Positions 2,498-63,819 of a DNA stretch of 64,000 nucleotides are shown here, one piece after another. This DNA comes from an uncultured Bacilli bacterium. Its GTDB lineage: Bacteria; Bacillota_I; Bacilli_A; RF39; UBA660. Both the position numbers and the translations under genes were made by a program. Numbering within the stretch: position 1 is the first letter of the stretch; each line of letters opens with the position of its first letter. Under the pieces are notes generated by a model, which worked only from the letters and a program-made list of their open reading frames with translations, ran no database searches and was not told the origin of the DNA. The stretch lies in the NCBI GenBank assembly GCA_934096125.1, contig CAKOLB010000002.1:41293-105292 (forward strand). Direction: 5' to 3'.

Positions 2498-2845
2498 TTA
2501 AATAGCTAGTCTATATGGGTCACTAAAGGTTCCGGAGCCACTTTTGTATAAGGCACTACTTTTTAGGTAAAACACTGGCTTTACTTGATAATCAGTATCA
2601 CTTGCCCTGGGATTGCGAGCTGTTATGTATCCTAACAAGTCTATTATATATATAGCACCAGATATAGCACCAGAATTTGTGTTTAGCGGCCAAAAATATC
2701 CGGCACTTCCCGTGATATTTCCTTTGCCACTTACAAATGATGTTTGCACACACAAGCTACTATTTGTATAAGCTCCACCTTGCGCGATAAAATAAACATA
2801 TGTTGCCCCAGTTACAAGCACTGAAACTGTCATAATCGCTACCAC
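2498..2845 (-). CDS. short (115 aa) member of the TasA/camelysin-like secreted family with SipW-cognate-type signal peptide
   Basis: N-terminus VLVTGATYVYFIAQGGAYTNSS matches the GGTFAYFSD-type SipW-cognate signal motif. The C-terminus (VKPVFYLKSS..SGSGTFSDPYRLAI) matches the C-terminal motif of the 508/515-aa paralogs (VVRPSFNL...SG.G...DPIRI). Confidence 0.6.
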   Translation of the reverse strand: MVAIMTVSVLVTGATYVYFIAQGGAYTNSSLCVQTSFVSGKGNITGSAGYFWPLNTNSGAISGAIYIIDLLGYITARNPRASDTDYQVKPVFYLKSSALYKSGSGTFSDPYRLAI

Positions 2846-2982
2846 TAGTAATATTTTTGCTTTACTAAACTTTTTTTTATAAATAATTAATACCTCACTA
2901 TTTACTACATATCTATTGTAATTAAATTACACAACAAATGTGTTCACTAGTCAATAGTTATCTATTTTCAAGTGGTATAAAG

Positions 2983-3117
2983 ATGTTGGTGAATAAAATG
3001 TATTACACGCAAAGATTAAAATGGGTGCGCGATTACAAAAATGTTACACAAAAAGAAATTGCTGATTACCTTTTAGGCTTGACGGATGTTATGAACCCTT
3101 GCCCTAAAGAAAAATAA
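2983..3117 (+). CDS. short XRE-family HTH ORF (44 aa; probably a truncated regulator), divergent from the TasA-like gene
   Basis: Translation MLVNKMYYTQRLKWVRDYKNVTQKEIADYLLGLTDVMNPCPKEK contains helix-1/2 of a Cro/C1-type HTH (..TQKEIA..L) and then stops. Not in the ORF track. Confidence 0.3.
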   Translation: MLVNKMYYTQRLKWVRDYKNVTQKEIADYLLGLTDVMNPCPKEK

Positions 3118-25422: not shown

Positions 25423-26949
25423 CTACACGGCAATCCTAATTGGATTTACTTTAGTTCCTGTGCCGGATGCATAAGTTGTGGAATCCACGAGATTGAAGGA
25501 CGGCCGGACCACATACGCCTTAGACGCACGGTTGCTGTCCACATACCCAGACGCATACACAACGAACACAGGAAACGCATAGTCCGAATACCGGGAAATA
25601 GTCCATTCATAACTACCGCCATTATATAGCCAGTTTTCTTTAATTCCTTTTCGGATGTCTTCTCCATTATACTTCCAACCAGGCAATGACCAATATTTTG
25701 GACTTGCTGCAAAACCATAGTCACTTGCATACATGAGTCCTATTTTTGCACTATAAGTAGTACTAGCATTCGTCGTCATTTCTTTTGAGTACATGTTCTT
25801 TATTCCTGCAGTCGAAGCCATTGACCTATCAGCTCCTCCGACTTGCCATGTTGTTGTGGCAATTTTACCAGCCCAAGTTGTTCCTATTTTATTTATGAAA
25901 TTTTTATTTAAGTTAGTTTTATTAAGTAAACTTGTACTCCAGTCATTTGAACCATCTCCTTGATTTATTGTTGTGTTTGCTTTGTAATTCCAGCTATATT
26001 CCGTACTTGAACTATAATCTCCATCAGCGCCAAGTAAAGTACTGCTTGCAACTGTGGCTTTAATAAGTTTCACTTGTCCACTTTTTACATAGATTATTCG
26101 GTATAGATTATCTGCTGGACATGGACTTGCAGTTGAACCAAAGCATACATAATTGTCGGGATTTGCTCCTGAATATCTGTAAGAGTCATCTTCTGCTCCT
26201 AGTATAAGTGATGCATCATGGTGATAAATACTTGCTGCTTGACCATATTTTGTACTTAGCGTTGTAAGACATGTTGCAAGGTTACTTCCATTTGTGCATC
26301 CGCTTGTTGCTAACGTATATTGTGAATTTTTGCTTATTTGGAGTACACCAGTAAAGCTCTTACCAGCATTACTGGTTTGGTCTCTATCTAAGTTAACTAA
26401 AGTAACTTGCACTTTCCAATTATCTGTTTTATTTGGAGATGCTGATATTTCATAATAATCAGCTATTTTTATTGGGCCAGTATAAGTTGTGATATCAAAG
26501 CCACTTACTCCACCAGAAGTTACATAATTCATCCCATCAAGCTCTGTTACTACTTTATTATTGGGATCAGTAATTGTAAGAAGCAATTCTGCAGAATTGC
26601 TACTAGTTGTGTATATGAAGGGATTGTTAGTAATATTAAAGTAAAGATAATAATGTTCTGTTGCTTCATTTGTAGCATCGTTGGCTGTTAGCAAAGCTGT
26701 TGCTGTAGTACTACCTGTCACATTACCTTTCCCACTTGCAAATGATGTTTGGTCGGCTGTTAGGTTAACCGATGAACCCACACTAAAAGATAAGTTATCC
26801 GTAGACGACGTTTGTACTCTAACGCTACTATTTGACGTAGCACCACCTTGTGCAACAAAATATGCATACGTTGCTCCTCCTACTACAACAAAAAAGCCAA
26901 ATAACGTTATTAACATTAAAATTTTTTCTTTTCTATTGCTTCTTTTCAT
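25423..26949 (-). CDS. TasA/camelysin-like secreted protein with SipW-cognate-type signal peptide (paralog A, 508 aa)
   Basis: N-terminus ...FFVVVGGATYAYFVAQGGATSNSSV matches the SipW-cognate motif (GGTFAYFSD...). ~95% nt identity to 28520-30058 over the 5' ~1 kb. RBS AAAGGAGTG. Confidence 0.65.
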   Translation of the reverse strand: MKRSNRKEKILMLITLFGFFVVVGGATYAYFVAQGGATSNSSVRVQTSSTDNLSFSVGSSVNLTADQTSFASGKGNVTGSTTATALLTANDATNEATEHYYLYFNITNNPFIYTTSSNSAELLLTITDPNNKVVTELDGMNYVTSGGVSGFDITTYTGPIKIADYYEISASPNKTDNWKVQVTLVNLDRDQTSNAGKSFTGVLQISKNSQYTLATSGCTNGSNLATCLTTLSTKYGQAASIYHHDASLILGAEDDSYRYSGANPDNYVCFGSTASPCPADNLYRIIYVKSGQVKLIKATVASSTLLGADGDYSSSTEYSWNYKANTTINQGDGSNDWSTSLLNKTNLNKNFINKIGTTWAGKIATTTWQVGGADRSMASTAGIKNMYSKEMTTNASTTYSAKIGLMYASDYGFAASPKYWSLPGWKYNGEDIRKGIKENWLYNGGSYEWTISRYSDYAFPVFVVYASGYVDSNRASKAYVVRPSFNLVDSTTYASGTGTKVNPIRIAV

Positions 26950-27239
26950 AAATCTACACTCCTTTTAATATTACCAACTTATCTTACTTTTCATTATACC
27001 AGAATTAGAAATAGCTAGTCAATCGTATAAAACTGTGTTAGTTTAAATTTGAAGTGCAACACTTCACCAATTGAAAAAGACACATGAATAACCTATAATA
27101 TCTGACAATTAAACAAGAAAGGAAAAATTATTTATTAGAACAGGTAAAACTAAAACAATGCCGTACACCGCAGAATACGCTCAGAATAACGCTGATTTTA
27201 AAAGAGGTTTATCTAAAGGTGAATACAAACTAAGGGGAA

Positions 27240-27947
27240 ATGAAAAAATGGCTAAGTTCATTGAAAAGAGATAAATGGGCACAAGATGCAATTGTGGGTT
27301 GTATGAAAAATCACGATTATTTTAACCGAGATGGCTTTGAGCCTATCACTACTCCCACAGTTTACCATGCCATAAGATATCACATCATCAATGTAAGACT
27401 AGAAGATACCAGAAGAATGAAATATAAAACAGAATATAAATACCATAAAAATGATCTTCCATCTCATAAACATCATGCTATCGTTCATAAAGACATTGAA
27501 CTATATGATTCAAAATATAAAGCAAATATTGTTATTAGTAAATACTTAAATACTAAGGATCCTTGGATTATTGTTACAAATAAAGATGTTAAGCATGCTA
27601 TTCAAAATTATTCTCATCGTTTTGGCTCTATTGAATGTGTTTTTAAAAATCAAAAAAGCAATGGATTATTTCTAGAAGCAATTAACAACGCAAGTGAGAA
27701 AGCATATAACACAATGTATACCATGGCCTGTACTGTTGCTTTATTTCTAACTATCATTGGTGCTGATTACTCTAAAAATATCAAATGTTATAAAACTGAA
27801 AAGATTGTTACTCATAAAGTGTATAAAAATAAAGGGAAAGTACGGGTTATGTCCTTATTTAGGATTGGTTTAACTTTGTTTCATCGAGCCGTAAATTCAC
27901 TAAAGTATATTCGATTGCCAATAAGATTTATTCTCTATGATATTTAA
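27240..27947 (+). mobile_element. truncated DDE transposase (C-terminal fragment with Y-x2-R-x4-E-x6-K signature), IS remnant
   Basis: ...KDPWIIVTNKDVKHAIQNYSHRFGSIECVFKNQKSNGLFLE... carries the IS4-superfamily C-terminal E/K block. The N-terminal DDE residues are absent, so it is non-functional. Confidence 0.5.
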
Positions 27948-28124: not shown

Positions 28125-28176
28125 CTCTTTTTGGCTCGGTTTCACCGTTGTTTTTTTAAAACTGTCCGTCAATCAG
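28125..28176. repeat. direct repeat copy 1 (~50 bp; copy 2 at 28474-28523)
   Basis: ctttttggctcggtttcaccgttgtttttttaaaactgtccgtcaatcag vs cttttggttagttttcaccgttgtttttttaaaattgtccgttaatcag. Confidence 0.7.
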
Positions 28177-28212: not shown

Positions 28213-28305
28213 ATGTATATATATCTATATTTTCAATTATATCGTATATATATCTATATTTTCAATTATATCGTATATATATCTATATTTTCAATTATAT
28301 CGCCT
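28213..28305. repeat. tandem repeat, ~3 x 29 bp (gtatatatatctatattttcaattatatc)
   Basis: Three consecutive near-identical units read directly. Confidence 0.75.
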
Positions 28306-37757: not shown

Positions 37758-38627
37758 TTATTTTCTATTAAAGGTTTTAAAATAGATATCTTTTAAGTGG
37801 TCGGTTGAAACATGAGTATAGATACCTGTAGTACTTAAGCTAGAGTGGCCAAGCAAGGTTTGTACAGTTTTAATATCAGCGCCATTATTTAGAAGGTGAG
37901 TAGCAAAAGTATGCCTGATTGTATGCGGGGTTACATGAGTTTTTAGAGAAATGTTTCTCATAATTTTTTTAAATATTTCTTCAACTTCAACAACGCTTAA
38001 TTTTTCCTTATTACTTTTGGCAAATAAATAATTACTATTATAATTTAAATTTGCTTTTAAATACTCTTTTAAATACTTATCAGCATACTCTCCATAGTAA
38101 ACAATTCGTTCTTTACTTCCCTTGCCCATTACTTTAATTTGCCGGGTGGAAGTATTGATATCTGCTAGTTTGATATTGATTATTTCACTAACTCGGCAGC
38201 CTGTTGCATAAAGCATTTCTAAAAGAAGACGAAACTTTAGCCCATCTTCTCCCATGCTACTTGCATGTTTAAGTAAATCTTCCATCTCTGTGTAGCTTAA
38301 ATAGTTTGGAAGTTTACGGGCTATCTTGGGGTTTTTGATACTTAAGAAAATGTTATGGGTTACTTTTTTTTCACTTAACAAAAAGTTGTAAAAGGACCGC
38401 AATGCACTAATACGTCTTGAGATAGTGCTGTTTTGCAAATCTAAAGTATCTAAATACTTAAGGTAAGAGCGAACGGTACTTGCATCAATTTGTAAATAAT
38501 CTATTTTATTTTTTTCTAAATATGAAAAGAAATCAGTTATGTCAAGCTGATATCCTTTAATTGTATTTTCTGAAAAATTTAAGTTCTTTTTTAGATATTC
38601 AAGAAAGTTTACGATTTCTTTTGGCAT
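37758..38627 (-). CDS. tyrosine recombinase (XerC/XerD-like)
   Basis: 289 aa; R...HTIRHTFATHLLNNGADIKTVQTLLGHSSLSTTGIYTHV (RHRH..Y catalytic set). Confidence 0.8.
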   Translation of the reverse strand: MPKEIVNFLEYLKKNLNFSENTIKGYQLDITDFFSYLEKNKIDYLQIDASTVRSYLKYLDTLDLQNSTISRRISALRSFYNFLLSEKKVTHNIFLSIKNPKIARKLPNYLSYTEMEDLLKHASSMGEDGLKFRLLLEMLYATGCRVSEIINIKLADINTSTRQIKVMGKGSKERIVYYGEYADKYLKEYLKANLNYNSNYLFAKSNKEKLSVVEVEEIFKKIMRNISLKTHVTPHTIRHTFATHLLNNGADIKTVQTLLGHSSLSTTGIYTHVSTDHLKDIYFKTFNRK

Positions 38628-38989: not shown

Positions 38990-39610
38990 TTACTCCGCCT
39001 TTTCTATACGTATATACCCTTTTAATTCTTTTTCAAAGTTACCATTTTGGGAAGCATCTAAATTAACATAAGTAACTTTAGCTACCCATTTTTGAAACGC
39101 TTTGGTACTTGATTTTATTACATAATCTTTAGCTATATAGTATCTACCGGTTTTGGTTGTAATATCGAAACCTTCGACATCTTTACTTTTAGTAAATTCA
39201 AGATTTTCAACATTGGTTACCATATTACCATCGGGGTCGGTGATAGTAAGTAAAAGTTCTGGAGATTTAGCTACAGTAGAATAAGTAAGAGTGTTTTTCT
39301 CTAGCTCTAAATATAGATTATATTTATAAGCAATTTCTTGGTCACCATCTACTTGCAGATAAGCGCTCGCAAAAGTTTCACCCGATAAGTTTCCCATACC
39401 TTCCCCAAAATTTTCAATCGTTGGTGCAATGTTAATTGGAAAGCCAGAATCAAATAATAATGAGTCTGTAACTGCCGTTGTAACATTTACTTTTGATGAA
39501 ACTTTAGATACTTGTAAAGCAGTAAAGTATGCAAAGCTAGCACCGATTACTAGTGATGTAAAAGCTGCTAAATAAATAAGCAATAATAAATTTTTAAATT
39601 TTTTACTCAT
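38990..39610 (-). CDS. short TasA-like secreted protein with SipW-cognate-type signal peptide (206 aa, divergent)
   Basis: N-terminus ...SLVIGASFAYFTALQVSKVSSKVNVTTA matches the SipW-cognate motif; the stretch SPELLLTITDPDGNMVT..FDITTKTG resembles the 508/515-aa paralogs' AELLLTITDP...FDITTYTG. Confidence 0.55.
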   Translation of the reverse strand: MSKKFKNLLLLIYLAAFTSLVIGASFAYFTALQVSKVSSKVNVTTAVTDSLLFDSGFPINIAPTIENFGEGMGNLSGETFASAYLQVDGDQEIAYKYNLYLELEKNTLTYSTVAKSPELLLTITDPDGNMVTNVENLEFTKSKDVEGFDITTKTGRYYIAKDYVIKSSTKAFQKWVAKVTYVNLDASQNGNFEKELKGYIRIEKAE

Positions 39611-39677: not shown

Positions 39678-40475
39678 TTACACATTTATAATTCCTAGGT
39701 CAACCAACATAACAGTTATTAGTGACAATGCTTTATAGTAGCCATCCGTTTTTAAAAAACTTTCTTCCATCTCAAATACTTTTTTATTAACTTTATAAAA
39801 ATCAGATGGTTCATAACTATAAATTTTCATATTTTCAAAAGATTTATGCATATTTTGAGCAGCCACTAAAAGAGATTTTTCTGTTATATTTGCTAAACTA
39901 TACTTACGAGCGTTTGCTCTAACTTCTTTTTTTACCTCTAAACTACTTCTAAATTTCATTAAATACGCTTGTTTGTTAAAATGAGATAACTCGTAGCTTT
40001 CAACACATGGATAACTTAGCAATAATAAACCATTCATATTATAGTTATTATCCTGCGAATTTCGATACACATCTAAACATTTAAGAACAGTCTTCTTAGT
40101 ATTACTTTTATGGTCTCTGTCCCAAAGGATATATATTGGAACATTTTTTAAGCTACGTTGATAATCTTTCATAATTAGATTATATAGGTTATCCTTAAAG
40201 TCTTCTGGTTCCAAAAGAGATTTCATGCTAGAACTATTTGTATTAACTACAAATACAGTGGAATTTTTATTTGTTTTACTTTGCATAATATCGGTTATAC
40301 CACGAGACTTTTTATAAGGAATATAATTATAATCAAATAAATCTACAAATATATGTTTTAATAGTTTAAATTCTTCTGATTCACCTTCTACTACAACAAC
40401 AATTTCCCCAATACTTTTATTTTTATTAACTTTTAAGTTCTTTATTGTATTTTGGCATTCCATCAAAAACTCCAT
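39678..40475 (-). CDS. RloB-like (Toprim/OLD-like) protein, AbiLii-like
   Basis: IVVVVEGESEEFKLL, IYILWDRDHK (DxD), LLLLSYPCVESYELSHF. Confidence 0.65.
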   Translation of the reverse strand: MEFLMECQNTIKNLKVNKNKSIGEIVVVVEGESEEFKLLKHIFVDLFDYNYIPYKKSRGITDIMQSKTNKNSTVFVVNTNSSSMKSLLEPEDFKDNLYNLIMKDYQRSLKNVPIYILWDRDHKSNTKKTVLKCLDVYRNSQDNNYNMNGLLLLSYPCVESYELSHFNKQAYLMKFRSSLEVKKEVRANARKYSLANITEKSLLVAAQNMHKSFENMKIYSYEPSDFYKVNKKVFEMEESFLKTDGYYKALSLITVMLVDLGIINV

Positions 40476-41589
40476 TTAAATACATTTTTTCAATATTTTG
40501 AGATTCACGGGGATTTTCATCAGAAAAACGTTTAACTACTGTTCCTCTAGCAGCATCAAATTTAAAAGAATAAATTTGGTCTGGCCTTAAAATAGATGTA
40601 TCTAATAAATTGGTTGAATGAGAAGTGAAAAATATTTGTGAATTACCACTATTATTAAAGAAATATTTTATAAGAGCTTCCTCTAATTCATTATGAAGCC
40701 CACTACTAAATTCATCTATTATTAACATACAATTATTTTTAGTAGCATAATAAATTGGTAATATAATACTAAGAAAAGCTTTATTGCCTGTTGACTCCAA
40801 GTTTAAGGGCATAACTACATTTGTCCCATTTTTTTTAAGACCTATCTTGTTATTTTTTGAACCTATTAAAATTGTTTTGCTTGCTTTACTATTTTCCTTT
40901 GTAAATACTATTTCACTCTTATAGCCAAGTTTTTTTAAAAAATTATTTAAAGACTTCTCTTTATTTTTCTCAGCATATTTGTCTAAAAATTGCTCAGAAA
41001 TTCTCGCAGGATTATATGATTTTATAATGCCATCTTGAAATAAACAATTGATATATATTGAATTTTTAAGAAAATCAAACCATTTATTTAACACTACATC
41101 ATTATTAAATCTTGTATTATAGTACTCAAGTTTTAAAAGTGACAAACTAGGACTAATGTTTTTATTATCTTTCTCCATACCAAAATAGGTTTTACCACTA
41201 GTATTTAATCTTTCTAATCTTAATTCACTATTTAAATATAACTTCTCAGAATTTATATAGTTTTTTTCAAAAGTAACACAATATTCTAACTCATTATTAT
41301 CAATATCAAATTTATAGCTTAATGAAAATTTATCATCTTTTGTATATAATGATTTTTTTTGGATATAGTCTTGTTCAGAATTTTCTAAAAGTAAGTCAAG
41401 CAAAAACTTAATAGCTTTTAAAACTTGGGTCTTACCTGAGGCATTTTCTCCTACGAATAAAGCACCTTTTAAAACCCTATTATCTCCAACGTTTGTTTCT
41501 TCTAATATTTTGTAATTGGTTGCCTTAAAATCAAATTTTGTTTTTTTAATAAACGTTGTATAGTTGTTTAAAGTAATTTCAGTTAACAT
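40426..41589 (-). CDS. AAA_15/AAA_21-type ATPase, AbiLi-like
   Basis: MLTEITLNNYTTFIKKTKFDF.. , Walker A GENASGKTQVLKAI, Walker B MLIIDEFSSGLH; overlaps the RloB gene by 50 nt. Confidence 0.65.
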   Translation of the reverse strand: MLTEITLNNYTTFIKKTKFDFKATNYKILEETNVGDNRVLKGALFVGENASGKTQVLKAIKFLLDLLLENSEQDYIQKKSLYTKDDKFSLSYKFDIDNNELEYCVTFEKNYINSEKLYLNSELRLERLNTSGKTYFGMEKDNKNISPSLSLLKLEYYNTRFNNDVVLNKWFDFLKNSIYINCLFQDGIIKSYNPARISEQFLDKYAEKNKEKSLNNFLKKLGYKSEIVFTKENSKASKTILIGSKNNKIGLKKNGTNVVMPLNLESTGNKAFLSIILPIYYATKNNCMLIIDEFSSGLHNELEEALIKYFFNNSGNSQIFFTSHSTNLLDTSILRPDQIYSFKFDAARGTVVKRFSDENPRESQNIEKMYLNGVFDGMPKYNKELKS

Positions 41590-51507: not shown

Positions 51508-52020
51508 TTAAGAGGCTGCAGGTGCTGCACAACTGTCTGTTATATTATTCGAACCATCAGTTACATCATCAGTTGCTACATCTTTTCCATTACCAGCATT
51601 TTTAACATTTAATTTACCATTAGTCATGCTAATTTTATATGTATAAATATTACCAGATTTTGTAACAGTTACACATCCTACATAATCAGTTTTGGCTTTA
51701 AAGAAACCACCAGTAATTAAATCACCAATTTTAACATTTGTTGTTCCACCGTTATCAACTGGCAAAGTTTTAGCATCAGAATCACCGCTCAATGAATTAT
51801 TAGTAAAATATGTTTGAGCAGCTTCAATTGCAGAGTTAGCTTCTAGAGCAAATACTTGTTTACGAGCTTCTGCCATTCTTGGAAGAACTGCTGTTGCAGC
51901 GATTAACATAACGATTGATAAAACTACGATAACTGCTAAGAGTTCAATTAATGTAAACCCATTCTTTCTTAATGCTTTTTTATTATTATCTTTTTTTTCT
52001 ATATCTTTATTCATTTTCAT
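51508..52020 (-). CDS. type IV pilin / pseudopilin-like protein (prepilin N-terminal cleavage-methylation motif)
   Basis: KNGFTLIELLAVIVVLSIVMLIAATAV: class III signal peptide G/FTLIE motif. Confidence 0.75.
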   Translation of the reverse strand: MKMNKDIEKKDNNKKALRKNGFTLIELLAVIVVLSIVMLIAATAVLPRMAEARKQVFALEANSAIEAAQTYFTNNSLSGDSDAKTLPVDNGGTTNVKIGDLITGGFFKAKTDYVGCVTVTKSGNIYTYKISMTNGKLNVKNAGNGKDVATDDVTDGSNNITDSCAAPAAS

Positions 52021-52095
52021 AACACCCTTTCCTATGCTTCAATAATACTATAATTGCGAGCATTAGTCAATGACTTTATTTGCCGGTTGTTGCTT

Positions 52096-52957
52096 CTAAC
52101 TTATCCTAATAGGGTCATCTTTTTGCCCCGTACCTGATGAATATATTGTTGATGCAAAACATACATAATTATCGGGGGTTGGTCCAGAATACCTATATGA
52201 GTCATCGCCTGCTTTTAAGGTAAGTGATGCATCATGATGATATAAACTTACTGCCTGACCGTACTTATTACTTAAAGTTGTAAAGCATGTTGCAAGGTTA
52301 CTCCCGCTTGTGCATCCACTTGTTGCTATTGTATATTGTGAGTCTTTGCCTATTTGCAAAATACCACTGAAACTTTTACCGGCATTACTTATTTAATCAC
52401 TATCTAAATTAACAAGTGTTACTTGCACCTTCCATGTATCTGTTTTACTTGGAGAAGCTGAGATTTCATAGCTTGATTGTGCCTGTATAAGTTGTTATAT
52501 CAAAGCCACTTACTCCACCAGACGTGACATAATTCATGCCATCTAGTTCTGTTACTATCGTCCCATTTGGGTCTGTTAAAGTAAGTAGGATTTCAGCAGA
52601 ATTGCTACTTGTTGAGTATATGAATGGGTTATTTGTAATATTGAAATATACATAGTAATGCTCGGTTGCTTTGTTGGTGGCATTATTAGCTGTAAGCATG
52701 GCTGTTGCTGTTGTACTTTCCGAAACATTTCCTTTCCCACTTGCAAATGATGTTTGGTCTTCTGTTAGGGCGATAGATGAACCCATACTAAAAGATAAGT
52801 TATCAGTTGGGGATGTTTGCACCCGTACAGAGCTATTTGACGTAGCACTACCTTGCGCTACAAAGTAAGCATATGTTGCCACAATAAATAAAGTAAGTAT
52901 TAGAACTATTGTTATAGGTAGTATAACTTTTTTTGATTTCGTAAGTAATTTTCCCAT
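52096..52957 (-). pseudogene. frameshifted TasA-like family member (N-terminal 163-aa and C-terminal 87-aa ORFs in different frames)
   Basis: 52466-52957 encodes ...ATYAYFVAQGSATSNSSVRVQTS...FDITTYTG. 52096-52359 encodes ...TSGCTSGSNLATC...DDSYRYSG..DNYVCF..DPIRIS. The 52360-52465 segment is out of frame. Confidence 0.65.
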
Positions 52958-53043
52958 TCTTTTTCATTATAAACAATATAAAAAAGAATTTATGTTAGCT
53001 ATATACTCACATAATTATTGATAGCAAAATATTACAATTATTA

Positions 53044-53301
53044 TGGTGAAAGAGATGATGCAGATAGAATATGATAACGATATTTATAATACTATTCGAA
53101 AAAATATCGCATAATAAGAAATATCACATCTGCAGAGCTGGCAGAAATGGTTGATTTATCCCATGATTTTATCAGGCAAATTCAAAGTGATAAAATAGCT
53201 AGCAATTTCTCAGTTGAAACTTTTTATAGAATAGCTAAAGCTTTAGATGTTTCACTAGATGATTTAATTCAAAAAAATATTTGGCTACTTAAAGATATCT
53301 A
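53044..53301 (+). pseudogene. XRE-family HTH regulator gene with an apparent +1/-1 frameshift near the 5' end
   Basis: Frame 1 MVKEMMQIEYDNDIYNTIRKNIA*; shifted frame ..IIRNITSAELAEMVDLSHDFIRQIQSDKIASNFSVETFYRIAKALDVSLDDLIQKNIWLLKDI* (complete Cro/C1 HTH). Confidence 0.45.
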
Positions 53302-53506
53302 AAATGTTACTAACAAGGTCAATGTTATCGATAACCTTCTCTATTTTGTCACTAGTCCTTTCTTTATATTTACTTTTCATTTCTTTAACAAACATTTCAT
53401 AATTCATCTCTCCTCGGTTTAAATATTTTATATACTGGGAGTTTTCCTTTAGAAGTTCGTAGCTTTTAGGGTCGTTTTTAAATGCTATGATATCTTTAGT
53501 AGTCAT
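53285..53506 (-). CDS. hypothetical small protein (paralogous to the next ORF)
   Basis: NRGEMNYEMFVKEMKSKY vs upstream KSGEMSWQKFYEIYDLY. Confidence 0.4.
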   Translation of the reverse strand: MTTKDIIAFKNDPKSYELLKENSQYIKYLNRGEMNYEMFVKEMKSKYKERTSDKIEKVIDNIDLVSNILDIFK

Positions 53507-63646: not shown

Positions 63647-63655
63647 ACTTTTTTT

Positions 63656-63756
63656 ACTCCCTACTATGGCAAGGGTATTCCAACTTTTTTTACTCCCTAC
63701 TACGGCAAGGGTATTCCAACTTTTTTTACTCCCTACTATGGCAAGGGTATTCCAAC
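63656..63756 (-). ncRNA. toxI: ToxI/AntiQ-like antitoxin RNA: 3 tandem 36-nt repeats
   Basis: Three copies of actccctacta(t/c)ggcaagggtattccaac, each followed by a 7-nt T-run (period exactly 36). Same strand and immediately upstream of toxN. Confidence 0.75.
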
Positions 63757-63819
63757 TTTTTATGAAACATTGCTGTTTCTTTGTTATTATATGAAGTTTC
63801 CCTCATTTAATACATATAT

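Follow-up and report, generated by a model that had tools for sequence, protein, structure and literature searches.

Silent-cassette antigenic variation is known from the pilE/pilS loci of Neisseria, the vlsE/vls cassettes of Borrelia and MgPar of Mycoplasma genitalium; in these classic systems the cassettes form arrays, are promoterless and 5'-truncated, and their variable segments stay open and recur in variants of the expression site. A candidate donor of this kind was proposed in an initial annotation of a 64,000-nucleotide (nt) stretch of contig CAKOLB010000002.1 from an uncultured Bacilli bacterium (assembly GCA_934096125.1; this whole stretch is referred to as the window): a broken third copy of a surface-protein gene, here termed copy C, at positions 52096-52957 on the minus strand. 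Copy C is an inactivated paralog and a genuine pseudogene, since it combines clear homology to intact genes with lesions that block a full-length product; very probably it is the fixed, non-functional remainder of a lineage-specific module of regulator and surface-protein genes that entered the interval between ylbE and a conserved pilin gene.

Lesions, reproducibility and relaxed selection

Copy C consists of two collinear open reading frames (ORFs) on the minus strand, 163 and 87 amino acids (aa) long, which are homologous to the intact copies A and B of the window, as the initial annotation had recognized. The lesions were located by three-way DNA alignment and gap-tolerant pairwise alignment, and were scored against copy A as the reference; a third intact paralog, P7 (protein P0007, locus L008), was available for comparison and probably belongs to the same species as the window, because locus L009, with the same P7 gene as L008, shares its sample with a 99.7%-identical strain contig. 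The intact copies of the window and the components of copy C are as follows.

25423-26949, minus strand: copy A, intact paralog, 508 aa
28520-30067, minus strand: copy B, intact paralog, 515 aa
52466-52957, minus strand: copy C fragment 1 (ORF1), covering copy A residues 1-162, with the signal-peptide region and the greater part of the N-terminal beta-sandwich; stop made by the frameshift
52928-52934, minus strand: homopolymer of seven A (A7) directly after the start codon; six A (A6) in 4/7 other strains
52472-52473, minus strand: junction of an 11-nt deletion, which causes the frameshift and ends ORF1; lost are copy A nt 483-493 (ADYY codons)
52360-52465, minus strand: inter-ORF stretch or linker (~106 nt), reading YEISASPSKTDTWKVQVTLVNLDSD-stop-ISNAGKSFSGI in the frame of ORF2
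52393-52395, minus strand: TAA nonsense codon; CAA (Gln) at the same position in copies A, B and P7
52096-52359, minus strand: copy C fragment 2 (ORF2), 69 codons that align with copy A residues ~204-272, then 18 that align with the C-terminal end of the paralogs (..SGTG..DPIRIS)
52149-52150, minus strand: junction of a 654-nt deletion (copy A nt 817-1470, 218 codons), in frame

In the AlphaFold model of copy A, the frameshift removes the last three strands of the beta-sandwich, and the 654-nt deletion takes out nearly all of the C-type-lectin-like domain, of which copy C retains the last 18 residues. The central deletion and the frameshift of the initial annotation both exist, as the 654-nt and 11-nt lesions, but the large deletion lies inside ORF2 and is in frame; the ~100 nt described as an out-of-frame joint in place of ~250 codons is instead collinear with paralog codons ~164-203. 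The identity of 85-90% given for this copy was an overestimate, since the measured values are 76-80% at the nucleotide level over collinear blocks (79.0% to copy A and 78.2% to copy B over 744 shared columns) and 75-77% at the protein level; no intact protein was more than 84% identical to copy C. Its designation as a third copy is correct with respect to copies A and B, but the window contains further family members, copies D and E (see below). Scans of the copy C region for Rfam families and tandem repeats gave no matches.

The split gene is reproducible across strains. Exact-protein look-ups with the products of the pilin gene and ylbE led to 24 contigs that were read in each case, with largely overlapping results; the conspecific contigs were assembled from several ENA samples, and their names follow two styles. 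The gene calls (a 51-aa XRE fragment, the 163- or 166-aa ORF, the 87-aa ORF and the pilin gene) were identical in 24/24 contigs, and the three lesions were unchanged in all seven contigs that were aligned base by base, at 99.5-100% identity to the window over 12.5 kb. Only the A7/A6 run at the 5' end, the sole indel inside copy C among the aligned strain contigs, varies between strains; the A6 allele shifts the 5' end of copy C to an upstream ATG and yields the 166-aa ORF call. This one variable indel in a homopolymer could point to an assembly or sequencing artefact in an otherwise intact gene, but the lesions that disable copy C comprise two deletions, of 11 and 654 nt, and one base substitution, none of homopolymer type. 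Because the gene calls agree in 24 contigs and the lesions in seven independently assembled ones, an artefact is refuted and its probability is practically nil; the comparison with other strains, suggested at the outset as a check, thus bears out the inactivation of copy C. The deletion junction that distinguishes copy C was also sought in JGI metagenomes; this gave 0 matches and was uninformative.

Sequence variation among the eight strains (the window and the seven aligned contigs) indicates that copy C is under relaxed selection and decays neutrally. Single-nucleotide polymorphisms (SNPs) occupy 20/756 nt (2.6%) of the copy C ORFs, compared to 0-1.4% in 16 flanking genes, an approximately 3.5-fold higher density; synonymous and nonsynonymous changes stand at 5:15 in copy C and at 57:22 in the flanking genes (Fisher's exact test, p=1.8e-4), and the distribution over codon positions (6/9/5) lacks a third-position bias. 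Import from copies A, B or P7 was considered as a source of these SNPs and rejected; the variant bases do not follow these paralogs, and the SNP excess therefore does not represent imported paralog sequence. An older layer of change has a different signature: the 82 private substitutions that separate copy C from the intact copies are distributed 21/13/48 over the codon positions, and this third-position bias suggests that copy C was earlier under purifying selection as a working paralog, and that its inactivation came comparatively late.

The insertion between ylbE and the pilin gene

Copy C is flanked by a prepilin-type gene and by a decayed regulator gene, and a second pair of relics is found elsewhere in the window.

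51508-52020, minus strand: prepilin-type gene, 170 aa, directly downstream of copy C; the leader ends in G, followed by FTLIELLAVIVV
52042-52070, minus strand: pilin promoter, TTGACT-17-TATTAT; right-hand limit of the insertion
53043-53302, plus strand: XRE/HTH_3-type regulator remnant, divergent and upstream of copy C; residues 1-22 in one frame and 20-86 in another
2498-2845: copy D, second relic, a 115-aa ORF reduced to the signal region and ~60 C-terminal residues of the family
2938-3117: truncated divergent helix-turn-helix (HTH)/XRE fragment adjoining copy D

The gene downstream of copy C is of the prepilin type, in agreement with the initial annotation; the prepilin motif with Glu at +5 (G/FTLIELLAVIVV) is present and recognized by Pfam N_methyl (PF07963, E=8e-8) and by TIGR02532 (E=4e-8). 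A ParC scan with one genome per species produced 80 loci from uncultured gut Bacilli, with a best ParC identity of 77% and with the labels "uncultured Bacilli", "Mycoplasma sp. CAG:472/776", Candidatus Onthocola and "Coprobacillus sp. CAG:605"; most of these 80 genomes, each standing for a related species, have the gene order parC-ylbD-ylbE-pilin-DUF1287, and the closest of them have the pilin gene directly after ylbE, across a gap of ~60-120 nt. The interval between parC and the pilin gene is somewhat variable, with unrelated family genes or others in L014, L041, L047 and more. The region upstream of the pilin gene, with ATTGACTA, a spacer, TATAGTATTAT and then the ribosome-binding site AGAGAGGTG, matches window positions 52042-52072; of 18 related genomes inspected (loci L010-L047), the 16 nearest have kept both promoter and ribosome-binding site, an unusually high degree of conservation for intergenic DNA.

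Judged by this gene order, copy C and the XRE remnant are a lineage-specific insertion of ~1.2 kb between ylbE and the pilin gene, and the latter belongs to the syntenic core of the clade, as a predicted independent transcription unit outside the relic. The conserved synteny and the conserved pilin promoter imply that the adjacency of copy C and the pilin gene, pointed out in the initial annotation, is a coincidence of position; a functional link was rejected on the same grounds, and the pilin gene should not be tied functionally to copy C. The pilin gene had also been called an orphan, which is appropriate in a local sense only: pilus-assembly genes (ATPase, platform protein, prepilin peptidase) were absent among the called genes around it, in the window and in the related loci.

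The XRE-type regulator beside copy C is frameshifted in 8/8 strains; intact paralogs in L008 and L091 have an intact divergent HTH gene at the corresponding position. The relic pair at 2498-3117, with XRE remnant and family remnant, repeats the pattern of joint decay of regulator and surface gene; altogether the 64-kb window contains two relics, copies C and D, each with its own decayed regulator. In the probable course of events, a two-gene module (a divergent XRE-type regulator and a secreted two-domain surface protein) entered the interval between ylbE and the pilin gene in one lineage of uncultured gut Bacilli. Copy C probably diverged as a working paralog before the 11-nt deletion, the nonsense codon and the 654-nt deletion disabled it, with loss of the lectin-like domain; the regulator of the module was frameshifted as well, and what is left of copy C now drifts neutrally, presumably without any current function.

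Gene conversion and the question of a donor

Conversion tracts were tested with a Sawyer-type permutation of concordant polymorphic sites. The intact copies A, B and P7 share long mosaic tracts (P<0.0005 for each pair), and gene conversion among them is, by this pattern, clearly active. In a comparison of the window with strain L090, 11/13 differences over 20.5 kb are concentrated in a single 82-nt patch of copy A (~26302-26383), which resembles a gene-conversion tract; its donor was not found in any sequence compared. Copy C was considered as the donor and rejected (4 mismatches, no shared 24-mer), and the suggestion that variable patches of the intact paralogs might derive from copy C is not borne out for this patch. 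The tract between copies C and B was not significant (P=0.32), and that between copies C and A was marginal (8 sites, P=0.016 uncorrected).

Several points weigh against copy C as a relic without function or consequence. Copy C and P7 share a significant tract, with ~40 nt of exact identity and agreement at 15 polymorphic sites (permutation P<0.0005), so that copy C has taken part in recombination at some time. The 902-nt contig L101 (1.55x coverage) is a mosaic of paralogs, in the order copy A flank and start, an unknown segment, 252 nt of copy C, 190 nt of P7, and copy B-like sequence; the 252-nt stretch is identical to copy C including the 11-nt deletion, the 190-nt stretch is identical to P7, and the junction between them falls exactly where these two paralogs are identical. 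An ORF whose start resembles a signal peptide persists whichever allele of the 5' A-run is present, and copy C might conceivably have a non-coding or regulatory role. The P7 tract and L101, the mosaic tracts among the intact paralogs and the clustered differences in the 82-nt patch favor a silent donor cassette, in which copy C, perhaps together with relic D, would be kept as a reservoir that converts the intact paralogs and varies the surface protein. Nevertheless, the organization and history of copy C argue against this reading. It keeps its ATG, its signal-peptide region and an upstream flank with the regulator remnant; the regulator has decayed as well; the two relics in 64 kb do not form a cassette array anywhere in the window; and the SNP pattern is neutral. 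The private substitutions of copy C (82, compared to 22-28 in the intact copies, a branch three to four times longer) place it largely outside the conversion network that homogenizes A, B and P7, and tracts shared with A and B are marginal or not significant, as given above. A run specific to copy C was found neither in the 33 closest intact homologs nor in other strains' alleles of copies A and B; the 82-nt patch has another source. The exchange with P7 most likely predates inactivation, because private changes of copy C, the nonsense codon among them, interrupt the tract. L101 is as compatible with homologous recombination as with a chimeric path in a low-coverage assembly; were it real, the copy C tract would inactivate copy A, not diversify it. 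The silent cassette of the initial annotation is therefore improbable. The related proposal that sequence from dead copies such as C (and D) still enters the expressed paralogs through segmental gene conversion, with L101 as a real allele of the copy A locus that took its 252-nt tract from copy C, is similarly improbable; if true, an uncultured gut lineage of the Bacilli would vary or switch off a lectin-like surface protein from a pseudogene reservoir. Copy C may at most participate in gene conversion occasionally and passively.

The persistence of a signal-peptide-like start bears on another alternative, in which ORF1 (163 or 166 aa) would encode a functional short secreted protein. Family members that consist of the N-terminal domain only do exist, such as three short (~200-aa) genes in tandem in L042, and the following gene in the window.

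38990-39610: copy E, intact short member, 206 aa, N-terminal beta-sandwich only, 39% identical to copy A residues 4-207

The hydrophobic N-terminus of ORF1 is kept by both A-run alleles; however, ORF1 breaks off at the position of copy A residue 162 and would lack the last three beta-sandwich strands of the model (158-206), its SNPs are mostly nonsynonymous (7 nonsynonymous, 2 synonymous), and a Shine-Dalgarno sequence is not visible upstream, unlike in copies A and B. A functional short protein is accordingly very unlikely, and the fixed pseudogene of an inserted module remains by far the preferred explanation for copy C. As a pseudogene, copy C matters little in itself; both it and its regulator should be annotated as relics.

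The parent family and comparison with known systems

The parent family is very large and unnamed, and is a more interesting object than copy C. Copy A has more than 7,900 homologs, all of them unnamed; a second homology search missed copy A-like proteins of the first, and absence from its list was not used as evidence. The AlphaFold model of copy A (from 58 homologs, mean pLDDT, the predicted local distance difference test, of 82) shows an N-terminal helix that is either a signal peptide or a membrane anchor, a beta-sandwich at residues ~50-206, and an alpha/beta domain at ~210-508; the family layout combines a hydrophobic signal or anchor with a conserved TYAYF motif, a beta-sandwich of ~160 residues and a C-type-lectin-like domain of ~300 residues. 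This C-terminal domain matches the fold of the N-terminal C-type-lectin-like domain of the immunoglobulin A (IgA) peptidase of Thomasclavelia ramosa (PDB 9qa6; PMC12237041), and the modeled structure indicates that the two domains are homologous. DUF6273 (PF19789) remains below threshold in copies A and B (13.1 and 13.6 bits, compared to a gathering cut-off of 23.5); some homologs in the family do carry PF19789 in precomputed annotation. The family has a lectin-like domain akin to that of a gut-bacterial IgA peptidase, and gene conversion has visibly rearranged its intact copies from strain to strain; it could act at the cell surface as a variable system for binding to the host or to glycans, and is worth a study of its own.

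The label "TasA-like", under which these genes were first described, is reduced to a faint resemblance in the signal-peptide motif. The hydrophobic N-terminus, followed by a G-x-T-Y-A-Y-F motif and a ..SFASG.. stretch, may be similar to a TasA/CalY leader. Peptidase_M73 (PF12389) had no match at E<=10; the SipW-dependent-type signal TIGR04088 reached 10 bits in paralog E, compared to a cut-off of 19, and had no match in copies A and C; TasA was absent from the structural matches of the copy A model; and the family profile found no matches among PDB sequences. A SipW gene was not seen among the annotated genes of the window, where not every ORF was scanned.

Further candidate rearrangements and repeats occur near family genes. 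Copy A has a different first ~210 nt in one strain (L091 1-7260, compared to window 26906-27240), where dnaK-dnaJ and an intact HTH gene lie ahead of it in place of a 235-aa ORF and copy B; this difference reflects either a rearrangement by recombination between paralogs or a join made in assembly. The 235-aa ORF (27240-27947) has no family match. In L100 (6001-6692), P0125 and P0127, copy B-like and copy A-like 5' fragments ending in ..GFDITT are fused to the promoter and start (MAKMEKERN..) of another paralog; the fusion runs through a shared 14-mer, GATATCACAACTTA. These two proteins were considered as divergent copy C orthologs and rejected, since they represent such copy B-like and copy A-like fusions. 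Three perfect 29-nt tandem repeats (28215-28302) lie between copies A and B; a 48-nt duplicate (28129-28176, 90% identical) of the copy B 3' end with its terminator region may be what remains of a further, lost copy. Copy E is flanked by a XerC/D-like recombinase (37758-38627) and an AAA_21/AbiEii-like ATPase (40426-41589). Further away, a 36-nt tandem repeat (ACTTTTTTTACTCCCTACTATGGCAAGGGTATTCCA; 3.2 copies, 97% identity) occupies 63647-63761.

In comparison with described systems, the IgA peptidase of T. ramosa shares the lectin-like domain with the parent family, but the family is without the metallopeptidase domain, and copy C has only the terminal 18 residues of the lectin-like domain left. 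Like the cassettes of Neisseria, Borrelia and M. genitalium, copy C is a partial, non-expressible copy beside expressed paralogs, in a family with gene conversion; unlike these cassettes, it is single, retains a full 5' end, combines a frameshift with a nonsense codon and the loss of a domain, and drifts neutrally, and no reproducible donor tracts from it were found. The closest counterpart is the ordinary pseudogene of a surface-protein family under birth-and-death evolution, although the parent family itself is uncharacterized; copy C agrees with this type in its intact homologs, its multiple fixed lesions, its relaxed selection and the mosaic structure of the intact paralogs, and differs from it in no essential respect.
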